Assembly (NCBI GenBank): GCA_965541585.1 | Contig: CBEUCH010000004.1 | Span: forward strand, 1-64,000 | Source: an uncultured bacterium | Lineage (GTDB): Bacteria; Zixibacteria; MSB-5A5; UBA10806 | Length of the DNA stretch: 64,000 nucleotides | Direction: 5' to 3' | Part shown: positions 30,001 through 42,000 of the stretch, piece by piece | How the letters are laid out: every line of letters begins with the position of its first letter | Position numbering within the stretch: the stretch's first letter is position 1 | Position numbers: made by a program

Positions 30001-33000
30001 CCTTACTTCGGGCATGAGCTGAAGAAGAGGTAAACGGCAACCGGGCGCATTGTTCCTGGGAGGGCTGTCAGGTACGGGTGAAGCGATGTTCAGTGGTGCA
30101 GGTGATACAATTCAGGGTGAGAGGCGAAAATCCACCGTAACAGTATCTCCGGCCTTCACATCAATCACATCTGACTGCTCCTTCAGCTTCCCATGCCACG
30201 TAAGGAGAGTGTACTTGCCCGGCGGTACATCCTCGATAGAGTATTTGCCGTCCGGCCCCGTCAGTGAAAAGAACGGGTTCTGCAGAACAACAATGAACGC
30301 GGACATCTCACGGTGGACATTGCATAAGAGAGAGACGACTCCGGTATCGTCAAAAGTAATGTCACGAATACCCCCATAACCCCATGTACCGATATTGAAT
30401 GGTTTTGTTTTAGACGGTGAGAAAATATTATGATCAAAACTATCACTGTTGGCAAACTGAACCGTGGTCCCGACCAGAATCGGCATTACGTGCGGAACGA
30501 AGACCCTGTTGATTTGATCAAGGACCGGCTTTATACTGTCCGGCTTGAAATTCCCCTCTACCTTTTCCAGATATACAATCACATCTCTGGCGTCTCTGAT
30601 CCCTCTTGCTGATACAGTCCCGGTTATCGTGCATTTTTCGATATTCCGGGCGATCGAGGTTATTGCTTTTCCACTATCAGGGTCGTTGTCGGCCACCGCG
30701 TAGCTGCCAAAAGCCATCAAACAGAAGATCAACGTTAATAGTATCATAATGAAATCACTCCTCACTTTTATGGTATTCGCTAATTATCCAATGGTTCCTG
30801 TGAGCATCGACGCTGCCTGTAATCCCTTTTACATCGGACAGTCCCGCTGTGAAACTCTTGCAGTCCGATGCCGGACTTCAGAAGGCAAATAAGACATTTA
30901 ACTTTATCCACTTGAGACTTTCACTGTTATCTGCCTCGACAGTATTTCCCGCGTTATCCGATTTATCTCTATCGATCTTGATGAAGCTCTCAATCGTGAG
31001 TCGGACATTCTCGCGAGCCAGCACCGTTACGTTGGGAGAAACCGTAAAATACTTGTCAAGATCGTTGTCATTCTGTTGAGAACTCACACCGCCAAGCCGA
31101 AAACCAGCGATCAGCCAGGGATACATGAGGTAATAGGTCTCTCCAAACCATGCCGTACTACTAATTTTTTTTTGATTCTCTGTCCCGGCCAGCATTGCGT
31201 TCGGGTTGTTGTCATCACCCGTGATAACGCCTGCATAGAAGTCGAGACGGCTGCGATTCAGGTGCAGATCAATGCCGTACCTGACGAAGTCATTATCTAC
31301 ATTTGTCCGTTGCTCGATCGAATCGGTCGGCGGAATCTGGATCCAGCTAACGTCTTCTCGCGTGTCGCTCCCATAGTAGATGTAGACTCCAGCAGTGATG
31401 GAATTGTCCATCCAATATTCCGTCTGTCTGGGTTCGGCCGACTCTTGAGACCGATAGCCGTCAAGCCCCAGCCTGCCAAACTTGATTGCCAGCCTGCTAT
31501 AGAAGTCCTTCTCGTCCGTTCTATCATCCAGCACTTTGCCTTCACCATTTACAACGCCAATAGCATACTGGTAGCGGTGATTTACGATTCCATTGATTTC
31601 GATGCCGGATTGTTGGTCCCTGGGGCGCCACTTGCCGGTGGCTTTGTAATCAAGCGTGGTAGCGTGTTCCAGCATGACCCTCTGATTGTCAACCAGACCT
31701 TCTGTAATACCAGGTTCTATTCGGCCTAACCTGATGTTGAAAGCATTCTCAGTACCAACGAGATCGTTTAACTGGAAAAAGAACCGTTTAAGTCCGATGG
31801 CATTCTCGCCATGTTCAAACAATACAAACTCCCCGAAAAAAGAAAAGGTCTTGTCAAAGGTGCCGCCGAACAAGAGTTCGAGTTCATGGGGCATGTCAAA
31901 TTCGATCTGATTGCCGCTCTTCGAAGCGCCATACTCAGTTATAAACCGCTGGTGGACATAGGCCGCGATTGGAAACTCTGCAGGCATCAAGCCCGGCCAG
32001 ATAGTATTGGGAAAGACTTCCTTCCAGGTTTCTGCACCCAACTCAATCGGATCCTGTTTGATTTGCGCCTTTTCCTGATCTGGCATAAAATACCCGTTTC
32101 TTCGAAATGCCTCGCCAAAGGCATTGCGTTTAGGGATAGCCACGTGACATGTAGTACAGGTCGTCTTGTACTTTCTGGCAAACGCCGGGATAGCCGCCGC
32201 ATCCCTGCAAAACATTATGATTACCAGCACAGCAAAGAGCACAATCGCGCACCGGCCAAAAAGTGCAGTATGATTCATAGTATTGTTTTGCATGAGAACC
32301 GCTTTAAGCCGTCGCCCGGTTAATCCCGCGAGCGACCCGGCGAATCGCAAAAATCAAATTGCCTCGTAAAGACTACTATGCCGCAGAGCGATACCATTAC
32401 TGCCGGTGGGTTAGCTACATCATTCCACACACTATCCAACCCTTAGAATGGCTCCAATCTCATCCGGGCAAACCATACACCCGGGCAATCAAAACGGTAT
32501 TAACCCGGCGTCTATTTGTCAAGTTCTATCGGGCGTTGATCCTACGCTCGCTCCGGTTTTTTGGCTACTCTCACGGTTGCCGTTCTTCAACTTCTGTCCG
32601 GGTATCAGATGCCCGTGACCGCAGAGGATTCATTCGCTACCGATCCTGGAAAGGTACATGACGTAGTAGCTGGCATTTTTGATATCCGTGTCCGAAAGTG
32701 TCTTTCCCCATGCAGGCATTAGATGAGAAAATCCGACCGCTGCGCCGCCCGAGGATATTGTTTCTTCTATCAGGGCGCTATCCAGTCGTGCCTGATAACT
32801 TGAGTCCGCAAAATTCCTCGGCCTGGGATCAAGATTGTAAGCATTAAATCCATCTCCTCTGCCTTCGGCCCCGTGGCAAATCGAACAGTATTTTCCGTAG
32901 ACCTTTCTGCCATTAGCAAGATCGCTATCCACAATCTCCTCAAAACTATTTGCGGTTTCCAGCACAAGATCCCGCTGCGGTGTTTCCTGTTTCGAGCATG

Positions 33001-39000: not shown

Positions 39001-42000
39001 ATACCAGGTTTTTCTGATCCATAACTTCGTGTTTTGCGGGTGCTTTGAATTCGCCCTGTATGCCCTCGATATAGATCAGGGTATGCGGCAGATATTTGCT
39101 TTTTTTAGCTGTTATCTTGCCCTTAATTGTACCTGCCTGAATAGGAATCCATGTCAGAAAACTGGCAATCAGCATGGCGACCGTTAACAGCCTGATATTT
39201 CTCATATCATCTCCTCATCCGTTTCCACATTTAGAATTAATCCAAGGCATAATCCGGGGGAGTTTCCGCACCGGTAACATCGGCTTGCCTGCCGAATATC
39301 CAGAATCTTTAACCCTCTACGGGCTGGTTTTGTTCTCCCCCGGGTAGCGCATTCCTTTTTTGTTAAATGCCTTGCCAAAGCCGTTAAGGCGAGGATAGGC
39401 TTAGTGGCAGGTGCTGCAACTGGTCTTGTACTTTCTGGCGAAAGTCGGGATAGCATTTACGGTCCCCGCCAGTAAAGCCGCCAGGAACAAGCAGGCCATT
39501 AAATTGAGAAATTAAACTGAATCGTTAGTCTATCATCGTCCTCGCGAGCCTCGTCAAGGGGCTTCCGGTATTCCAGAGAACATTTTACATTTGCCCGGAT
39601 CATAACGATCACAGCCGGCACCAACGTAGTCTGCGGATCGGGATCATCAAGATCGGTGTCTCTGTCGACAAACTCATAACGCGCCTGCCCTATTAACCAC
39701 GGGAAGACTACATAATTGAGCTCGCCGAACCAGGCCAGCGACGTTCTTTCCACAGCGTCATAGTCGGATTTCATTTGCATGAAAAGACCTACGACATTGA
39801 ATTTATCATACCAGAAATCGATATCTCCGCCAAAAACGGTGAAATCATCTTCCAGCGTATCTTTAACGGCGCTGCCTGAGTAAGCGAATCCTCCTAAACG
39901 TACAGAATTGTCTATGTAAAAGGCTGACTCCGAACTCTCCTGCCCTTCGGTTCCGCCTATTTCGCCGAGGCCGCCTATCTTATAGGTGCCCCTGGCGTAA
40001 AAATCTTTTGATGTATTCAGATCGAAATTATCCTCATCATTCTGGCCGTTACCTATACCGACGGCATAAGTGAAGCCGCCCTGACCACCAGATCCGTTAC
40101 CGGCGCCCCATAACTCCAGGCCACCGCCGGCGCCACTCCGCATCCTCCAGGTTCCGGATTGATTTCTGAGATCCTCAATTGCGTAATGTTCTCTGGTTAA
40201 TCTGTGATGTTCGGGACTGACAGTAAGCCCCACCGAACCGGCTTTAAGATGAATCCTTGGGCTGAAATCATATTGCAGGGCGAATTCGTAGGCCAACTCA
40301 GTCTCATGTTCTAATTCAACCTCTCCGAAATAGGAGATTTTGTCTCCAATAGTACCTGCAAACAAAAGTTCGAATTCGTGGGGTATTTCAAATGTCATTC
40401 CCTTATCCTCTTCAACCTCGCCTGTGGTTGTAGGATCATCCCATTTTCCCCCGTAATGGATACGTCCGAACGCGTGAACTGATAAGGGAGAAGTGCCGGC
40501 GATATCTGCGGGCCAAATGGCGTCCGGCCAGACCTTCTTATAGCTTTCAGAGCCAAGGCTTACGGGTTCTTCTTTCGTAAAGTTCTCGTCGCCCCCTGGA
40601 TACCTGAATCCGTTGTTCGCGAACGCCTTCCCAAATCCGTTTAGTTTCGGATAGGCATAGTGGCAGGTGCTGCAACTGGTCTTGTACTTTCTGGCAAATG
40701 TCGGGATTGCCTTTGTAGTCCCCGCCAGTAAAGCCGCCAGGAACAAGCAAGCCAGAACTGCTCCACAGTAGACTTTTTTCATTGTACCTCCTTAAACGTT
40801 TAATGCTAAAACACTTCCGATTGGTTAAGCAACAAACATGCCATTTACAGCGCCTGATAACTGCTTGGATAATCGGCAGTTATGGGACGGGGAAAATACC
40901 CGGCTTGTTGAATTGTAACATATCATTACATTCACAATGGTGGTAGTCGTTTTAAGGCATTAGGATTCAAAAGGATAGAAATTATTTCAAGTAATTTGTA
41001 ATGAATCGTTACAGTTACAGATCTTTGATATCGTATTGGTCGATCTTCTTATAAAGCCGCGGGCGAGAAATTCCTAATATCTCTGCCGCCTTAGATTTAT
41101 TGCCGTTGGATTCTTTGAGAGCCTTGATTATCAGATCTTTTTCAGCTTCTGAGAATGAGGGCACCGATGTCGCTTGTTTTCCACCATGATCAGGTGCGCT
41201 GGTTATGTTTGCAGGCAGGTCTTTGGAAGTGATAATCTCCGCAGCTCTCTCCGCAAACAGACGCTCGACCAGGTTTTCCAATTCTCTGATATTACCGGGC
41301 CAGCGGTATTTTGCAAGCATGTTCAGGGCATTGTCATCAAAAGCCTTAATTTTGAAATCATGGGTCTGGTTGCCTTTATCCAGGAAGTACTGCAATAAAC
41401 CGACTATTTCATCGCTTATTTTCCTCAATGGAGGGACATCGATAGGAATAACGTTCAATCTATGATAGAGATCCTCTCTCAGCAACTTCCGGGAAAGCGC
41501 ATTTTGCAGATCAGTATTAGTGGCCGCAATAAACCGAACGTCAATCTTTAATTCTTCGACAGAGCCGACGGGCCTTATGGATCTTTCCTGGATTGAGCGC
41601 AGAAGCTTGGCCTGCGTACCGGGTTGCATCTCCACCAGCTCATCCAGAAACAGTGTTCCGCCGTCGGCGGACATCATTAAGCCCTCATGATCCTGGCCGG
41701 CGCCGGTGAATGCGCCTTTCCTGTAGCCGAACAATTCACTTTCTATCAATTCGCGGGACAGGGCGCTGCAGTTTATGGCAACAAACGGCCCTGAAGTCCT
41801 ACGGCTGTTTTTATGTATAGCCGTGGCGAAGAGTTCTTTGCCGGTGCCGCTTTCCCCGGAGATAAATACAGAACAATCACATCGGGCCGCCGATGTGATT
41901 CTGTCATAAACCTTCATCATAAGGGCATTGCTGAATACATACCCATCCAACTGAAGATCATGAGTTACTATTTTTTTTAACTGTTGAACCTCATTCTGGA

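Follow-up and report, generated by a model that had tools for sequence, protein, structure and literature searches.

The minus strand between positions 30112 and 40782 of the window, a 64,000-nucleotide stretch of an uncultured Zixibacteria genome (contig C4), encodes a set of redox proteins that probably moves electrons between dissolved extracellular iron and the respiratory chain. The genes run in the order cycB, cupB, an NAD(P)/FeS flavoprotein, Rieske protein, cytochrome b, octahaem cytochrome c, monohaem cytochrome c, cycA and cupA, all recovered at the coordinates and on the strand given in the first-pass annotation. Our leading, albeit tentative, reading is that this string is a single sigma-54-controlled operon for an electron path that spans the whole cell envelope and takes up electrons from Fe(II).

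Two of the genes encode fused cytochrome-porins. The 427 aa product of cycB (39499..40782, minus strand) contains a single CxxCH, at residue 37, within the motif AIPTFARKY-KTS-CSTCH-YAY-PKL, and its AlphaFold2 model (50-row alignment; pLDDT 72.2, pTM 0.73) places 16 strands within residues 100-426, the N-terminal residues 20-97 being of low confidence. Foldseek matched the model to 16-strand porins, including OprP (2o4v, TMq 0.56), and the barrel resembles those of the anion-selective porins OprP and OprO. cycA (30878..32350, minus strand) is a 490-aa ORF, with a likely start at 32278 that yields 466 aa; in the family alignment it shares 30% identity with cycB, and its single CxxCH, counted along the long ORF, falls at residue 65, in the motif AIPAFARKY-KTT-CTTCH. 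A third paralogue, on contig C25 (C25:11849-13237), has its CxxCH at residue 46. The three haem positions had been noted before, together with a predicted barrel of about 16 strands, and both observations hold.

These proteins had been called Cyc2-like. According to the accessible part of the published description (PMC8406198), Cyc2 proteins are recognized by a cytochrome motif, described as unique to Cyc2, by length and by a 16-strand barrel. As a reference, we used a Cyc2 already recognised in the literature, which is encoded in the 'Ca. Chlorobium canadense' genome and was picked by the CCACH-containing c5 cytochrome upstream of it; this protein aligned with cycB in hhalign (probability 98%, E 2.7e-13) and with cycA in BLASTP (29% identity across 145 aa, E 6e-10). 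Because motif, length and fold agree with the published description and the Chlorobium protein is matched, we place these porin-cytochromes in the Cyc2 family proper; the proposed kinship stands, and "like" is too weak. Counting against this assignment and the Fe(II) reading, the alignment with the recognised Cyc2 is limited to the first 108-145 residues, the barrels are divergent, and the PxL of the family motif is replaced by PKR in cycA and in the C25 copy. Standard iron-gene tools should already be able to call proteins of the cycA/cycB type. Next to cycB lies a remnant of a cyc2 5' end (39326..39502, minus strand), comprising a signal peptide and haem motif with a stop directly after CSTCH; it shares 78% amino-acid identity with cycB residues 9-69, interrupted by one TAA, and 82% mean column identity in the nucleotide alignment. 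The 84-aa ORF at 39202-39456, over this remnant, is probably spurious.

A protein of about 200 aa that combines a cupredoxin with a beta-sandwich had been reported beside each Cyc2, and we find it at all three copies. cupB (38597..39205, minus strand; 202 aa) is a periplasmic protein in which a type-1-copper cupredoxin interrupts a CarboxypepD_reg-like beta-sandwich, as indicated by its AlphaFold2 model (pLDDT 93.2), Foldseek matches to the C-terminal cupredoxin of NirK (6hbe, 7e-8) and amicyanin (1id2, 1e-6, TMt 0.72), and Pfam matches to fn3_3 (34.5 bits) and CarboxypepD_reg (30.2 bits). The previously noted H/C/H/M copper ligands, H92, C133, H136 and M139 in cupB numbering, are invariant across 40 aligned sequences. 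cupA (30112..30765, minus strand; 217 aa; CarboxypepD_reg 32.9 bits, cut-off 32.3) is 40% identical to cupB and has the same ligand columns. The C25 cupredoxin (C25:13836-14447) lies downstream of the C25 Cyc2 copy, and a fourth paralogue, C18:39418-40041, has as its neighbour a periplasmic enzyme of the type-II DMSO-reductase family rather than a Cyc2. As previously claimed, two of the four exceed the Pfam Copper-bind cut-off of 21.2 bits (C25, 22.4; C18, 23.1); cupB scores below it, at 18.8, and cupA had no Copper-bind match at E<=0.01. The description of a new cupredoxin cannot be maintained: at E<=1e-5 the family comprises 4958 clusters of 90% identity, many of which JGI already names 'plastocyanin'. 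The novelty looks to lie in the cupredoxin's linkage, not in the protein itself.

Also as reported, a Rieske protein, a cytochrome b and a large cytochrome c are encoded near Cyc2. The flavoprotein (36778..38625, minus strand) is GltD/NfnB-like, with two C-terminal [4Fe-4S] clusters (Pfam Fer4_20 67.4, Pyr_redox_2 88.9, Fer4 42.3 bits); the subunit is present as described, and the 602 aa given for it correspond to the likely start at ATG 38586, the full ORF being 615 aa. Its best PDB matches are 9bov/9bp5 (8e-102) and, for residues 531-606, FwdF 5t5i. The 164-aa Rieske [2Fe-2S] subunit (36303..36797, minus strand; Pfam Rieske 51.8 bits) has a twin-arginine-like RRKF N-terminus. The cytochrome b (35056..36306, minus strand; 416 aa) fuses b6-like and subunit-IV-like parts (Pfam Cytochrome_B 158, Cytochrom_B_C 36.4 bits); its best PDB matches are cytochrome b6 proteins (1e-46), and in NCBIfam it scores 289 bits against Geobacter ExtP, the nearest curated match (cut-off 290), and 81.7 against ExtQ (cut-off 150). 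The membrane-anchored octahaem cytochrome c (33052..35043, minus strand; 663 aa) has CxxCH at residues 71, 108, 146, 173, 272, 377, 494 and 593, with Pfam Cytochrom_C matched in three stretches (109.6 bits) and c7/c3-type matches at the N-terminus. An 8-10-haem subunit had been proposed; both the 663-aa and the 855-aa cytochromes contain exactly 8 CxxCH. The monohaem class-I cytochrome c (32630..33055, minus strand; 141 aa; CSICH at residue 57; Pfam Cytochrome_CBB3 41.1 bits), which in most related loci is encoded after the octahaem cytochrome, is possibly a lipoprotein, judging from an LFSC in its sequence.

Upstream, on the same strand, a two-component pair is encoded, both members of which are confirmed by Pfam: a 382-aa sensor histidine kinase (42379..43527; HisKA 46.3, HATPase_c 89.5 bits) and a 454-aa sigma-54-dependent response regulator (41015..42379; Response_reg 90.5, Sigma54_activat 215.5, HTH_8 54.3 bits). 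Such a kinase and regulator precede Cyc2 in many related loci; among the 62 loci with at least 3 kb of upstream sequence, 22 have a regulator homologue (>=150 bits) within 3 kb. The sigma-54 promoter consensus is TGGCAC-N5-TTGCW, and a promoter-like site with one mismatch to it, TGGCATGTTTGTTGCT (40828..40843, minus strand), lies 46-61 nt upstream of the cycB ATG. This is one of only two sites in the window with at most one mismatch, but because consensus matches are not above chance overall (28 observed, 25.5 expected), the argument for a promoter is one of position. Likewise, a consensus scan located a terminator-like GC-rich hairpin with a T tail (29905..29922, minus strand; 7-pair stem, 6 GC pairs) about 190 nt after cupA, and this is only a positional hint since such hairpins in the region number 11 against 11.2 in shuffles.

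The conserved linkage was surveyed in 80 loci from genomes of different species, the focal Cyc2 being found in 79. Of the 77 evaluable loci, 69 have a cupredoxin along with Cyc2, and in 63 it comes immediately downstream on that strand; within the host phylum it lies no more than 1.2 kb from Cyc2 in all six genomes with a full-length Cyc2 match. Rieske, cytochrome b and multihaem cytochrome genes follow downstream in 28 of the 50 loci with at least 8.5 kb of downstream sequence; 20 of these 28 encode the flavoprotein, and 3 encode a 96-aa ferredoxin in its place. The gene order that runs from Cyc2 via cupredoxin, flavoprotein, Rieske, cytochrome b and octahaem to monohaem is shared by several phyla, the genes overlapping or almost touching, in MAGs labelled Ignavibacteriales, Acidobacteriota, Eisenbacteria, Glassbacteria, Myxococcales, Thermodesulfovibrionia and Chlorobiaceae; MAGs labelled Desulfobacterales also carry the cluster. 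The host itself carries such a cluster a second time, on C25, and the C25 type is present in Chlorobiaceae (L077, L079, L084). The literature that we searched reports Cyc2 in such lineages; a linkage to the cupredoxin and the Rieske/b set was not found there. The first-pass annotation had proposed a self-contained Fe(II)-oxidation module: the observed gene content, folds, motifs and linkage, with the conserved order, promoter-like site and hairpin, support that anatomy and the notion of a single wired module, and the Fe(II) direction has to be stated more cautiously.

We infer that the proteins form one chain, along with its substrate and direction of flow. Each Cyc2 would sit in the outer membrane as a 16-strand porin with one c-haem at the periplasmic mouth, exchanging electrons with a small dissolved redox species inside the pore, most likely Fe2+/Fe3+. 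Each would be served by a dedicated periplasmic type-1-copper cupredoxin, the beta-sandwich half of which may be a docking module. The next carriers inward would be the monohaem and membrane-anchored octahaem cytochromes, followed by the Rieske centre and the quinol site of the b6-type cytochrome b; on the cytoplasmic side, the FeS/FAD NAD(P) oxidoreductase would be tied to the chain of low-potential b haems. Dissolved Fe(II) would donate electrons through Cyc2 and cupredoxin to a high-potential haem pool; these would pass on to the caa3 oxidase and, via the Rieske/b complex, be linked to the quinone and NAD(P) pools, making this complex the putative counterpart of the 'uphill' pet branch of Acidithiobacillus ferrooxidans. 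By our estimate, the reversed, Fe(II)-fed mode of the complex would require NAD(P)H or proton-motive force.

For the physiological direction, we lean, with some hesitation, towards Fe(II) oxidation over outward reduction. Functionally validated Cyc2 proteins are described as iron oxidases, with +208 mV for the protein measured, in the accessible part of PMC8406198. A. ferrooxidans likewise reportedly unites Cyc2 with the cupredoxin rusticyanin and with a bc1 operon that includes an NADH-complex accessory gene; the Chlorobiaceae with the C25-type cluster are phototrophs that need electron donors, not acceptors; and the host encodes a caa3 cytochrome c oxidase (CtaD 702.8 bits, cut-off 670.75). 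These points favour uptake, and the iron-oxidase descriptions and the Chlorobiaceae also speak against the same module running in reverse, an unlikely but serious contender. Run outward, it would be a bifurcating quinol:metal oxidoreductase in which menaquinol is oxidised by the Rieske/b complex, one electron passing from the b haems through FeS clusters and FAD to NAD(P)+ and the other through octahaem, monohaem, cupredoxin and Cyc2 to a dissolved high-potential acceptor (chelated Fe(III), Mn(III)). Outward flow is the mechanism published for the homologous Kuenenia complexes, in which quinol is oxidised and one electron leaves for a high-potential acceptor, with Rieske potentials measured at +303 and +335 mV. 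It is further consistent with the ExtP score, ExtP coming from the reduction-linked Geobacter cluster extHIJKLMNOPQS, where an OprP-like porin is likewise joined to Rieske, cytochrome b and cytochrome c genes; with the Desulfobacterales and Thermodesulfovibrionia MAGs, anaerobic lineages in which it is hard to see what would oxidise Fe(II); and with the phylum to which the host is assigned by kinship with a MAG titled Ca. Deferrimicrobium, predicted, in the accessible part of the source, to live as a facultatively anaerobic, Fe(III)-reducing heterotroph. The host genome (estimated 98% complete) yielded no RuBisCO large subunit, which also counts against Fe(II) oxidation, as do its 16 ORFs with at least 3 CxxCH, including 19-, 20- and 28-haem proteins. 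However, with large multihaem cytochromes for metal reduction already so numerous, outward flow through Cyc2 is harder to motivate, and a chain near +200 to +300 mV would, by our own estimate, be unable to reduce ferric minerals near 0 mV.

The genes could instead be co-regulated without forming one chain, Cyc2 and cupredoxin delivering electrons from Fe(II) directly to the terminal oxidase or another periplasmic enzyme while the Rieske/b-octahaem complex simply serves the cell as quinol:cytochrome c oxidoreductase and supplies the same pool. The 22 of 50 loci with enough flank that lack the Rieske/b set, most of which retain the cupredoxin, are in line with this, as is the C18 cupredoxin, whose location away from Cyc2 points to a general role of the family as electron carriers in the periplasm; the identical tight gene order in many phyla and the host's two separate copies of the whole arrangement make such a split rather improbable. 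We give still less weight to a pore substrate other than iron, be it Mn(II), Cu(I) or an oxyanion (selenite, tellurite, nitrite). The barrel is akin to anion-selective porins, the OprP-like, Rieske/b-linked Geobacter ExtI affects selenite and tellurite reduction, and nitrite reduction has been proposed for the anammox homologue; against this, the cytochrome motif is described as unique to Cyc2, and the parts of the literature accessible to our search yielded no tests of other Cyc2 substrates. The locus merits experimental follow-up.

[quoted passage not shown] The Rieske/b core is of the anammox type: the closest solved relative of the Rieske protein is Kuenenia Kuste4569 (9rk4_A, E 1.1e-23), and the structural homologues listed for Kuste4570 in the anammox paper, 9bov/9bp5 and the FwdF 5t5i entries, are those of our flavoprotein. 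The respiratory parts of the module had been correctly named, and the closest analogue of its Rieske/b part had been overlooked: the Kuenenia complexes Kuste4569-4574 and Kustd1480-1485, which unite Rieske/cytochrome b with an NAD(P) oxidoreductase and a multihaem subunit, and on whose proposed wiring our cytoplasmic branch is modelled.

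On the minus strand of the window, an uninterrupted string of genes runs from a histidine kinase to cupA, one of two cupredoxin genes. The kinase (43527-42379) and a sigma-54 response regulator (42379-41015) stand ahead of cycB (40782-39499), one of two genes for Cyc2-type porin-cytochromes, followed by the cupredoxin gene cupB (39205-38597), an NAD(P)/FeS flavoprotein (38625 or 38586 to 36778), a Rieske protein (36797-36303; Pfam Rieske) and a cytochrome b (36306-35056; Pfam Cytochrome_B and Cytochrom_B_C). The string continues with a 663-aa cytochrome c containing exactly eight CxxCH motifs (35043-33052) and a 141-aa cytochrome c containing one (33055-32630), here called the octahaem and monohaem cytochromes, and ends with cycA, the other Cyc2-type gene (32350 or 32278 to 30878), and cupA (30765-30112). 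Matches in Pfam and NCBIfam put a name to all genes of the string but cycA and cycB. A second cluster on another contig of the host genome, C25, has the order Cyc2 (the third paralogue, cycC, 11849-13237), cupredoxin, Rieske protein, a 96-aa 2x[4Fe-4S] protein, which is all that stands where the flavoprotein would be expected, and then a split cytochrome b, an 855-aa octahaem cytochrome and a 133-aa monohaem cytochrome. The 19 runs listed for positions 30800-40790 of the window were all DNA and none RNA, with a best share of sampled words of 0.34.

The 232-nt gap between the regulator gene and cycB holds a sigma-54-type site, TGGCATGTTTGTTGCT, at 40828-40843, that is, 46-61 nt upstream of the cycB start, and past cupA, at 29922-29905, stands a terminator-like hairpin, the only noncoding one on the minus strand. 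Both signals are consensus matches that were weighed solely by position; because the sigma-54 pattern occurs across the whole window at chance level (28 matches against 25.5 expected), only the placement of the 40828-40843 site is meaningful. Directly 3' of cycB and before cupB lies the remnant of a cyc2 5' end (39326-39502, minus strand; about 170 nt), with 78% amino-acid identity to cycB residues 9-69, which comprises the signal peptide and haem motif and reaches a stop right after CSTCH. It may have been left behind by a tandem duplication or by copies of cyc2 recombining with each other. Since this remnant occupies the stretch between cycB and cupB, an 84-aa ORF that overlaps it in another frame (39202-39456) is probably no gene and was rejected as such. 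The 3' end of the operon adjoins a plus-strand gene (26909-29998) for a 1029-aa protein of STAND-type architecture, in which a trypsin-like peptidase is combined with an NB-ARC NTPase and TPR repeats.

The first-pass annotation had described the three paralogues as Cyc2-like cytochrome-porins, and this is borne out by motif, length, the predicted fold of cycB and a match to a recognized Cyc2. Members of the Cyc2 family are characterized by a signal peptide and a single CxxCH with AxPxFAR[Q/K][T/Y] upstream and PxL downstream; they are 365 aa long or more and contain a 16-strand porin similar to OprP/OprO, and the upstream motif has been called unique to Cyc2 (PMC8406198). Each of the three proteins has one CxxCH, at residue 65 in cycA (residue 41 if counted from the likely start), 37 in cycB and 46 in cycC, preceded by a hydrophobic leader (read by eye), and their lengths of 466 (cycA), 427 (cycB) and 462 aa (cycC) exceed 365 aa. 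AIPAFARKY in cycA and cycC, and AIPTFARKY in cycB, end three residues before the first Cys in the alignment. At the position of PxL, about four residues past CxxCH, cycB has PKL, whereas cycA and the C25 copy depart from the family motif with PKR. An AlphaFold2 model of cycB, the one paralogue modelled (50 sequences; pLDDT 72.2, pTM 0.73), shows 16 strands between residues 100 and 426 and a poorly defined N-terminal part (20-97). Foldseek matched this model to 16-strand porins, among which OprP (2o4v) stood at rank 6 with the top query TM-score of the matches listed (0.56) and OprO (4rjw) at rank 31 of those matches.

The comparison with a recognized Cyc2, missing from the first-pass annotation, was run against the third Cyc2-like gene (locus L092) in the MAG Chlorobium sp. 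L304-S-6D, which also carries locus L079. This gene is preceded by a c5 cytochrome with an unusual CCACH motif, and the same upstream CCACH c5 cytochrome accompanies cyc2 of 'Ca. Chlorobium canadense' (preprint 10.1101/653014). Homology was detected both by hhalign with the 50-sequence profile (probability 98%, E 2.7e-13, 108 columns) and by BLASTP with cycA (E 6e-10, 29% identity over 145 residues). The barrels themselves are very divergent: only the first 108-145 residues align, covering the cytochrome domain and the first strands, which fits the statement that the porin part of Cyc2 is poorly conserved (PMC8406198). We thus predict, from sequence and model, that the three porin-cytochromes are members of the Cyc2 family. 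Pfam and NCBIfam have no family for any of them, and the source-given names of the 120 close homologues listed are all 'hypothetical protein'; in a profile search, relatives numbered 3615 clusters (50% identity) at E<=1e-3, 1440 at E<=1e-10 and 349 at E<=1e-30.

The protein encoded by cupB is predicted to be a type-1 (blue) copper cupredoxin set inside a beta-sandwich. Its AlphaFold2 model (pLDDT 93.2) was best matched by Foldseek to the C-terminal cupredoxin of NirK (6hbe, 7e-8), then to amicyanins (1e-6, target TM 0.72-0.75), with purple cupredoxin 5fc9, pseudoazurins and plastocyanins as further matches. The residues H92, C133, H136 and M139 (cupB numbering) are invariant in 40 aligned sequences, and the C-x2-H-x2-M spacing is that seen in the alignment with 6hbe. 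Matches to CarboxypepD_reg/fn3_3 fall in the first (25-47) and last (151-199) strands of cupB, suggesting that the cupredoxin is an insertion in that beta-sandwich; fold, ligands and strand positions thus agree with the earlier description of a type-1 copper cupredoxin joined to a carboxypeptidase-regulatory-like sandwich. Against Pfam Copper-bind (PF00127; gathering cut-off 21.2 bits) the C25 copy scored 22.4, a fourth paralogue on contig C18 23.1 and cupB 18.8 bits, with no match for cupA at E<=0.01. Rusticyanin was rejected as an identity, none being present among the 50 Foldseek matches listed or the 29 PDB profile matches. A complex prediction for Cyc2 (residues 24-427), cupredoxin (24-202) and haem, run without controls, gave scores of 0.29 and 0.01 against a mark of 0.32.

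This cupredoxin had also been presented as new, which does not hold: the family is not rare, comprising 4958 clusters at E<=1e-5, many of them named 'plastocyanin' by JGI. The fourth paralogue is encoded ahead of a periplasmic enzyme of the type-II DMSO-reductase family (C18, 39418-47517; locus L094, 619-8718), which consists of a Tat-signal alpha subunit (1148 aa), an FeS beta and a haem-b gamma subunit and a chaperone, with all subunits scoring below equivalog cut-offs. Given this neighbor, the family looks like a putative general periplasmic electron carrier. The cupB-type cupredoxins also conserve an extra C-x3-C pair (residues 123 and 127 of cupB; EKRCDKVCD), which might form a disulfide or bind a further metal and is absent from cupA and the C25 copy, in an alignment made without the C18 copy.

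To judge by its sequence relatives, the Rieske/b core of the window is of the anammox type. The best solved relative of the Rieske protein is 9rk4 (E 1.1e-23), which is Kuste4569 of Kuenenia stuttgartiensis (PMC12954380), followed by the Rieske protein of the b6f complex (1.7e-17); the match to 9rk3 (Kustd1480) has an E-value of 6.5e-16. For the flavoprotein, the best solved relatives are 9bov/9bp5 (8e-102), with FwdF (5t5i) for the C-terminal ferredoxin part, and the same 9bp5 and 5t5i entries have been named as structural homologues of the Kuste4570 NAD(P) oxidoreductase (PMC12954380). The cytochrome b is b6-like (best PDB matches to cytochrome b6, 1e-46), with a subunit-IV part fused on, and the place of cytochrome f or c1 is taken by an octahaem subunit, both the 663-aa protein and its 855-aa paralogue containing eight CxxCH motifs. 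The nearest curated family of this cytochrome b is Geobacter ExtP; assignment to the Ext equivalogs was rejected, the scores against the NCBIfam models lying below the curated cut-offs for ExtP (289 vs 290), ExtQ (81.7 vs 150) and ExtS (81.2 vs 100).

The linkage between these genes recurs in many lineages. A scan of one genome per species yielded 599 pattern matches and 555 confirmed relatives, from which the 80 best-scoring loci, which are not a random sample, were kept and their ORFs searched with the proteins of the window (phmmer, E<=1e-5). The focal Cyc2 was recovered in 79 of the 80, L078 being cut off. Among 77 evaluable loci, 69 have the cupredoxin, in 63 directly downstream on the same strand. 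A Rieske protein, cytochrome b and multihaem cytochrome follow downstream on the same strand in 28 of the 50 loci whose downstream flank measures 8.5 kb or more, accompanied by the flavoprotein in 20 of these 28 and by a small ferredoxin in 3. Of 62 loci, 22 have a sigma-54 regulator no further than 3 kb upstream. The eight loci lacking a cupredoxin come from Chlorobiaceae (five), Planctomycetaceae, Planctomycetia and Bacteroidetes (one each, the last with a frameshifted Cyc2). Genes for proteins of about 208 aa downstream of Cyc2 in three Chlorobiaceae loci (L026, L035, L041) were considered as divergent cupredoxins and rejected, since their sequences resemble membrane transporters and have no copper motif. 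The record titles of the 80 loci name Ignavibacteriales, Bacteroidota, Chlorobiaceae, Acidobacteriota ('Acidoferrales', 'Ca. Acidiferrum'), Eisenbacteria, Glassbacteria, Zixiibacteriota, Myxococcales, Desulfobacterales, Thermodesulfovibrionia, Planctomycetia and Ca. Deferrimicrobium. Seven loci from Ignavibacteriales and Bacteroidota (L010, L012, L014, L023, L033, L038, L069) carry, between the sigma-54 regulator and Cyc2 and about 400 nt upstream of the latter, a small receiver-domain-only gene that is absent from the window.

Within the host phylum, a Cyc2-like match (E<=1e-10) was found in 76 of 201 genomes and the cupredoxin in 50. Full-length Cyc2 matches (at least 299 bits) occur in only 6 of the 201, the host included, and each of these 6 has the cupredoxin on the same strand, no more than 1.2 kb away. 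In the remaining 70 genomes the match is to the cytochrome domain, in some with a weak further stretch of barrel (up to 66 bits), and in the three of them that were compared (G045, G131, G194) the Cyc2-like gene is tens of kb from the cupredoxin. These 70 genomes contain a second, more widespread Cyc2-like lineage, with ORFs mostly of about 390-540 aa. Among near relatives of the host, 9 of 41 have a Cyc2-like match. For the Rieske/b genes of the window, the nearest counterparts are in a Deferrimicrobium MAG (L017; flavoprotein 970 bits, octahaem 1021), and cycB is closest, among the compared loci, to proteins of the Ignavibacteriales type. This patchy occurrence of Cyc2 in relatives, together with the differing sequence affinities of the Rieske/b genes and cycB, indicates that the module has probably been shuffled and transferred between lineages.

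The host genome, an estimated 98% complete, encodes one haem-copper oxidase, of the caa3 type, and a cytochrome bd-like oxidase; no RuBisCO large subunit was found in it. Three or more CxxCH motifs are present in 16 host ORFs, with up to 28 haems. These include two adjacent ORFs with 20 and 28 CxxCH (C18, 50111-53997; L094, 11312-15198), large multihaem ORFs on contigs C6 (136937-141786; 19 and 11 haems) and C8 (30629-31675; 13 haems), and, just past the end of the window, an 840-aa ORF with 10 CxxCH (64294-66816, minus strand). Elsewhere in the window are a second sigma-54 response regulator (235-1605, minus strand), a 1448-aa multi-PAS/GAF hybrid histidine kinase (52031-56377, plus strand), and two minus-strand proteins (3302-5899 and 6105-7619) with Por_Secre_tail, a C-terminal sorting domain of type-IX secretion, one also containing cohesin and dockerin and the other fused to a class I/II aminotransferase domain.

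From the parts, their folds and their linkage, we infer a single chain as the simplest reading. Electrons would pass from dissolved iron in the Cyc2 pore to the Cyc2 haem and the cupredoxin, and from there through the monohaem and octahaem cytochromes to the Rieske centre and the quinol site, and the FeS/FAD NAD(P) module in the cytoplasm would connect to the chain of b haems. We tentatively prefer uptake of electrons from Fe(II) as the direction of flow, at somewhat less than an even chance, because Cyc2 has a known activity and a potential of +208 mV (PMC8406198), because the arrangement parallels the A. ferrooxidans system, because the cluster is present in phototrophic Chlorobiaceae, and because the host has a cytochrome c oxidase.

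Outward flow to an extracellular acceptor is the chief rival to Fe(II) uptake and seems to us unlikely, albeit a serious contender. It would agree with the bifurcation model published for such Rieske/b complexes (PMC12954380), with the analogy to Geobacter Ext (PMC5877670) and with the presence of anaerobic lineages among the carriers, and iron reduction has been predicted for the host phylum, the host being assigned to Deferrimicrobiota/MBNT15 through kinship; a term search of the paper on that prediction found neither Cyc2, Rieske nor cupredoxin. That the genes are co-regulated yet serve separate functions we regard as quite improbable, and a substrate other than iron as very improbable. To return to Fe(II) uptake, its boldest form is that of a supermodule, complete in itself and spread by horizontal transfer, that acts as an Fe(II):quinone/NAD(P)+ oxidoreductase and in which a Cyc2 subfamily and its own blue-copper shuttle would feed an anammox-type Rieske/b-octahaem-flavoprotein complex; taken as a whole, this is rather unlikely in our estimate.

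Each component of the locus is of a known kind, and surveys with FeGenie have already reported genes for Cyc2 from Ignavibacteriales and Zixibacteria (PMC8478452). In the literature searched, outside which fell supplements and subscription journals, we found no account of a Cyc2 subfamily with a dedicated cupredoxin and an anammox-type Rieske/b-octahaem-flavoprotein complex, nor of what stands behind Cyc2 in its non-classical carriers (Ignavibacteria, Zixibacteria, Acidobacteriota, MBNT15). Cyc2 serves in surveys as the marker gene for neutrophilic iron oxidation, and the locus proposes a complete conserved path behind it, from cupredoxin through monohaem and octahaem cytochromes and a Rieske/b complex to a cytoplasmic NAD(P) module. 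It makes testable whether abundant lineages of sediment, soil and groundwater oxidize or reduce iron through Cyc2, and what role is played by the enigmatic NAD(P)-linked Rieske/b complexes, so far discussed mainly for anammox bacteria; the patchy spread of the module across phyla bears on the movement of iron metabolism between lineages. Were the supermodule real, dissolved Fe(II) could directly supply both energy and reducing power to bacteria with a heterotrophic or facultative way of life in many phyla (MBNT15/Deferrimicrobiota, Ignavibacteria, Acidobacteriota, Chlorobia and others), and Rieske/b complexes with an NAD(P) oxidoreductase would have their first physiological role outside anammox bacteria.

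Among known systems, the Cyc2 proteins of Mariprofundus PV-1 and A. ferrooxidans have in common with those of the window the signal peptide, the single N-terminal CxxCH, the motif, the length and the predicted 16-strand barrel (PMC8406198). The recognized cyc2 of Chlorobium adjoins a c5 cytochrome (10.1101/653014), whereas in the subfamily of the window Cyc2 is followed by the cupredoxin gene. The locus as a whole resembles rus/petI of A. ferrooxidans, which likewise brings together a Cyc2 in the outer membrane and a cupredoxin in the periplasm with c-type cytochromes, a Rieske/cytochrome b complex and an accessory gene linked to NAD, there sdrA (in part PMC10654088). It differs in that the predicted cupredoxin is amicyanin/plastocyanin-like and fused into a beta-sandwich, in that a b6-type complex with octahaem subunit and GltD/Nfn-like flavoprotein takes the place of a bc1 with cytochrome c1, and in that the set forms one operon under predicted sigma-54 control in hosts that appear to be neutrophilic.

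The Geobacter sulfurreducens cluster extHIJKLMNOPQS likewise joins a gene for an OprP-like outer-membrane porin to c-type cytochromes and to Rieske/b genes, namely the Rieske protein ExtO, cytochrome b ExtP (289 bits with that of the window), membrane subunit ExtQ and lipoprotein cytochrome c ExtS (PMC5877670). For its ExtI no haem is mentioned there, and the cluster as listed has 10- and 12-haem cytochromes and a rhodanese but neither cupredoxin nor NAD(P) flavoprotein. An operon of Nitrospina gracilis, Kuenenia and 'Ca. Methylomirabilis oxyfera' also encodes a b6-type cytochrome b, a Rieske protein and an octahaem cytochrome (PMC3578206); there, cytochrome b is split, the atypical octahaem protein is the only cytochrome c subunit, and the description as given makes no mention of Cyc2, cupredoxin or flavoprotein.

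The two complexes of Kuenenia stuttgartiensis (Kuste4569-4574 and Kustd1480-1485) comprise a Rieske protein, a b6-like cytochrome b, subunit IV, a cytochrome c with six or eight haems and a putative NAD(P) oxidoreductase on the cytoplasmic side, with measured Rieske potentials of +303 and +335 mV. Quinol oxidation is proposed to split its two electrons between NAD(P)+ and a high-potential acceptor, and even for Kuenenia the assembly of the subunits into one complex that makes NAD(P)H is a proposal (PMC12954380). The window shares with them the Rieske protein, the b6-like cytochrome b, the subunit-IV part, the octahaem cytochrome and an operon-encoded FeS/FAD NAD(P) oxidoreductase, and its Rieske box II, CPCHGSTF, has Ser and Phe as in Kustd1480 (PMC12954380). 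Unlike Kuenenia, it has no HAO-like partner, and Cyc2 and the cupredoxin are encoded alongside; a single protein combines cytochrome b and subunit IV, which many related loci keep split; Thr occupies the column of the b6 haem-cn cysteine (HMMER alignment); and the hosts of the cluster are not anammox bacteria.
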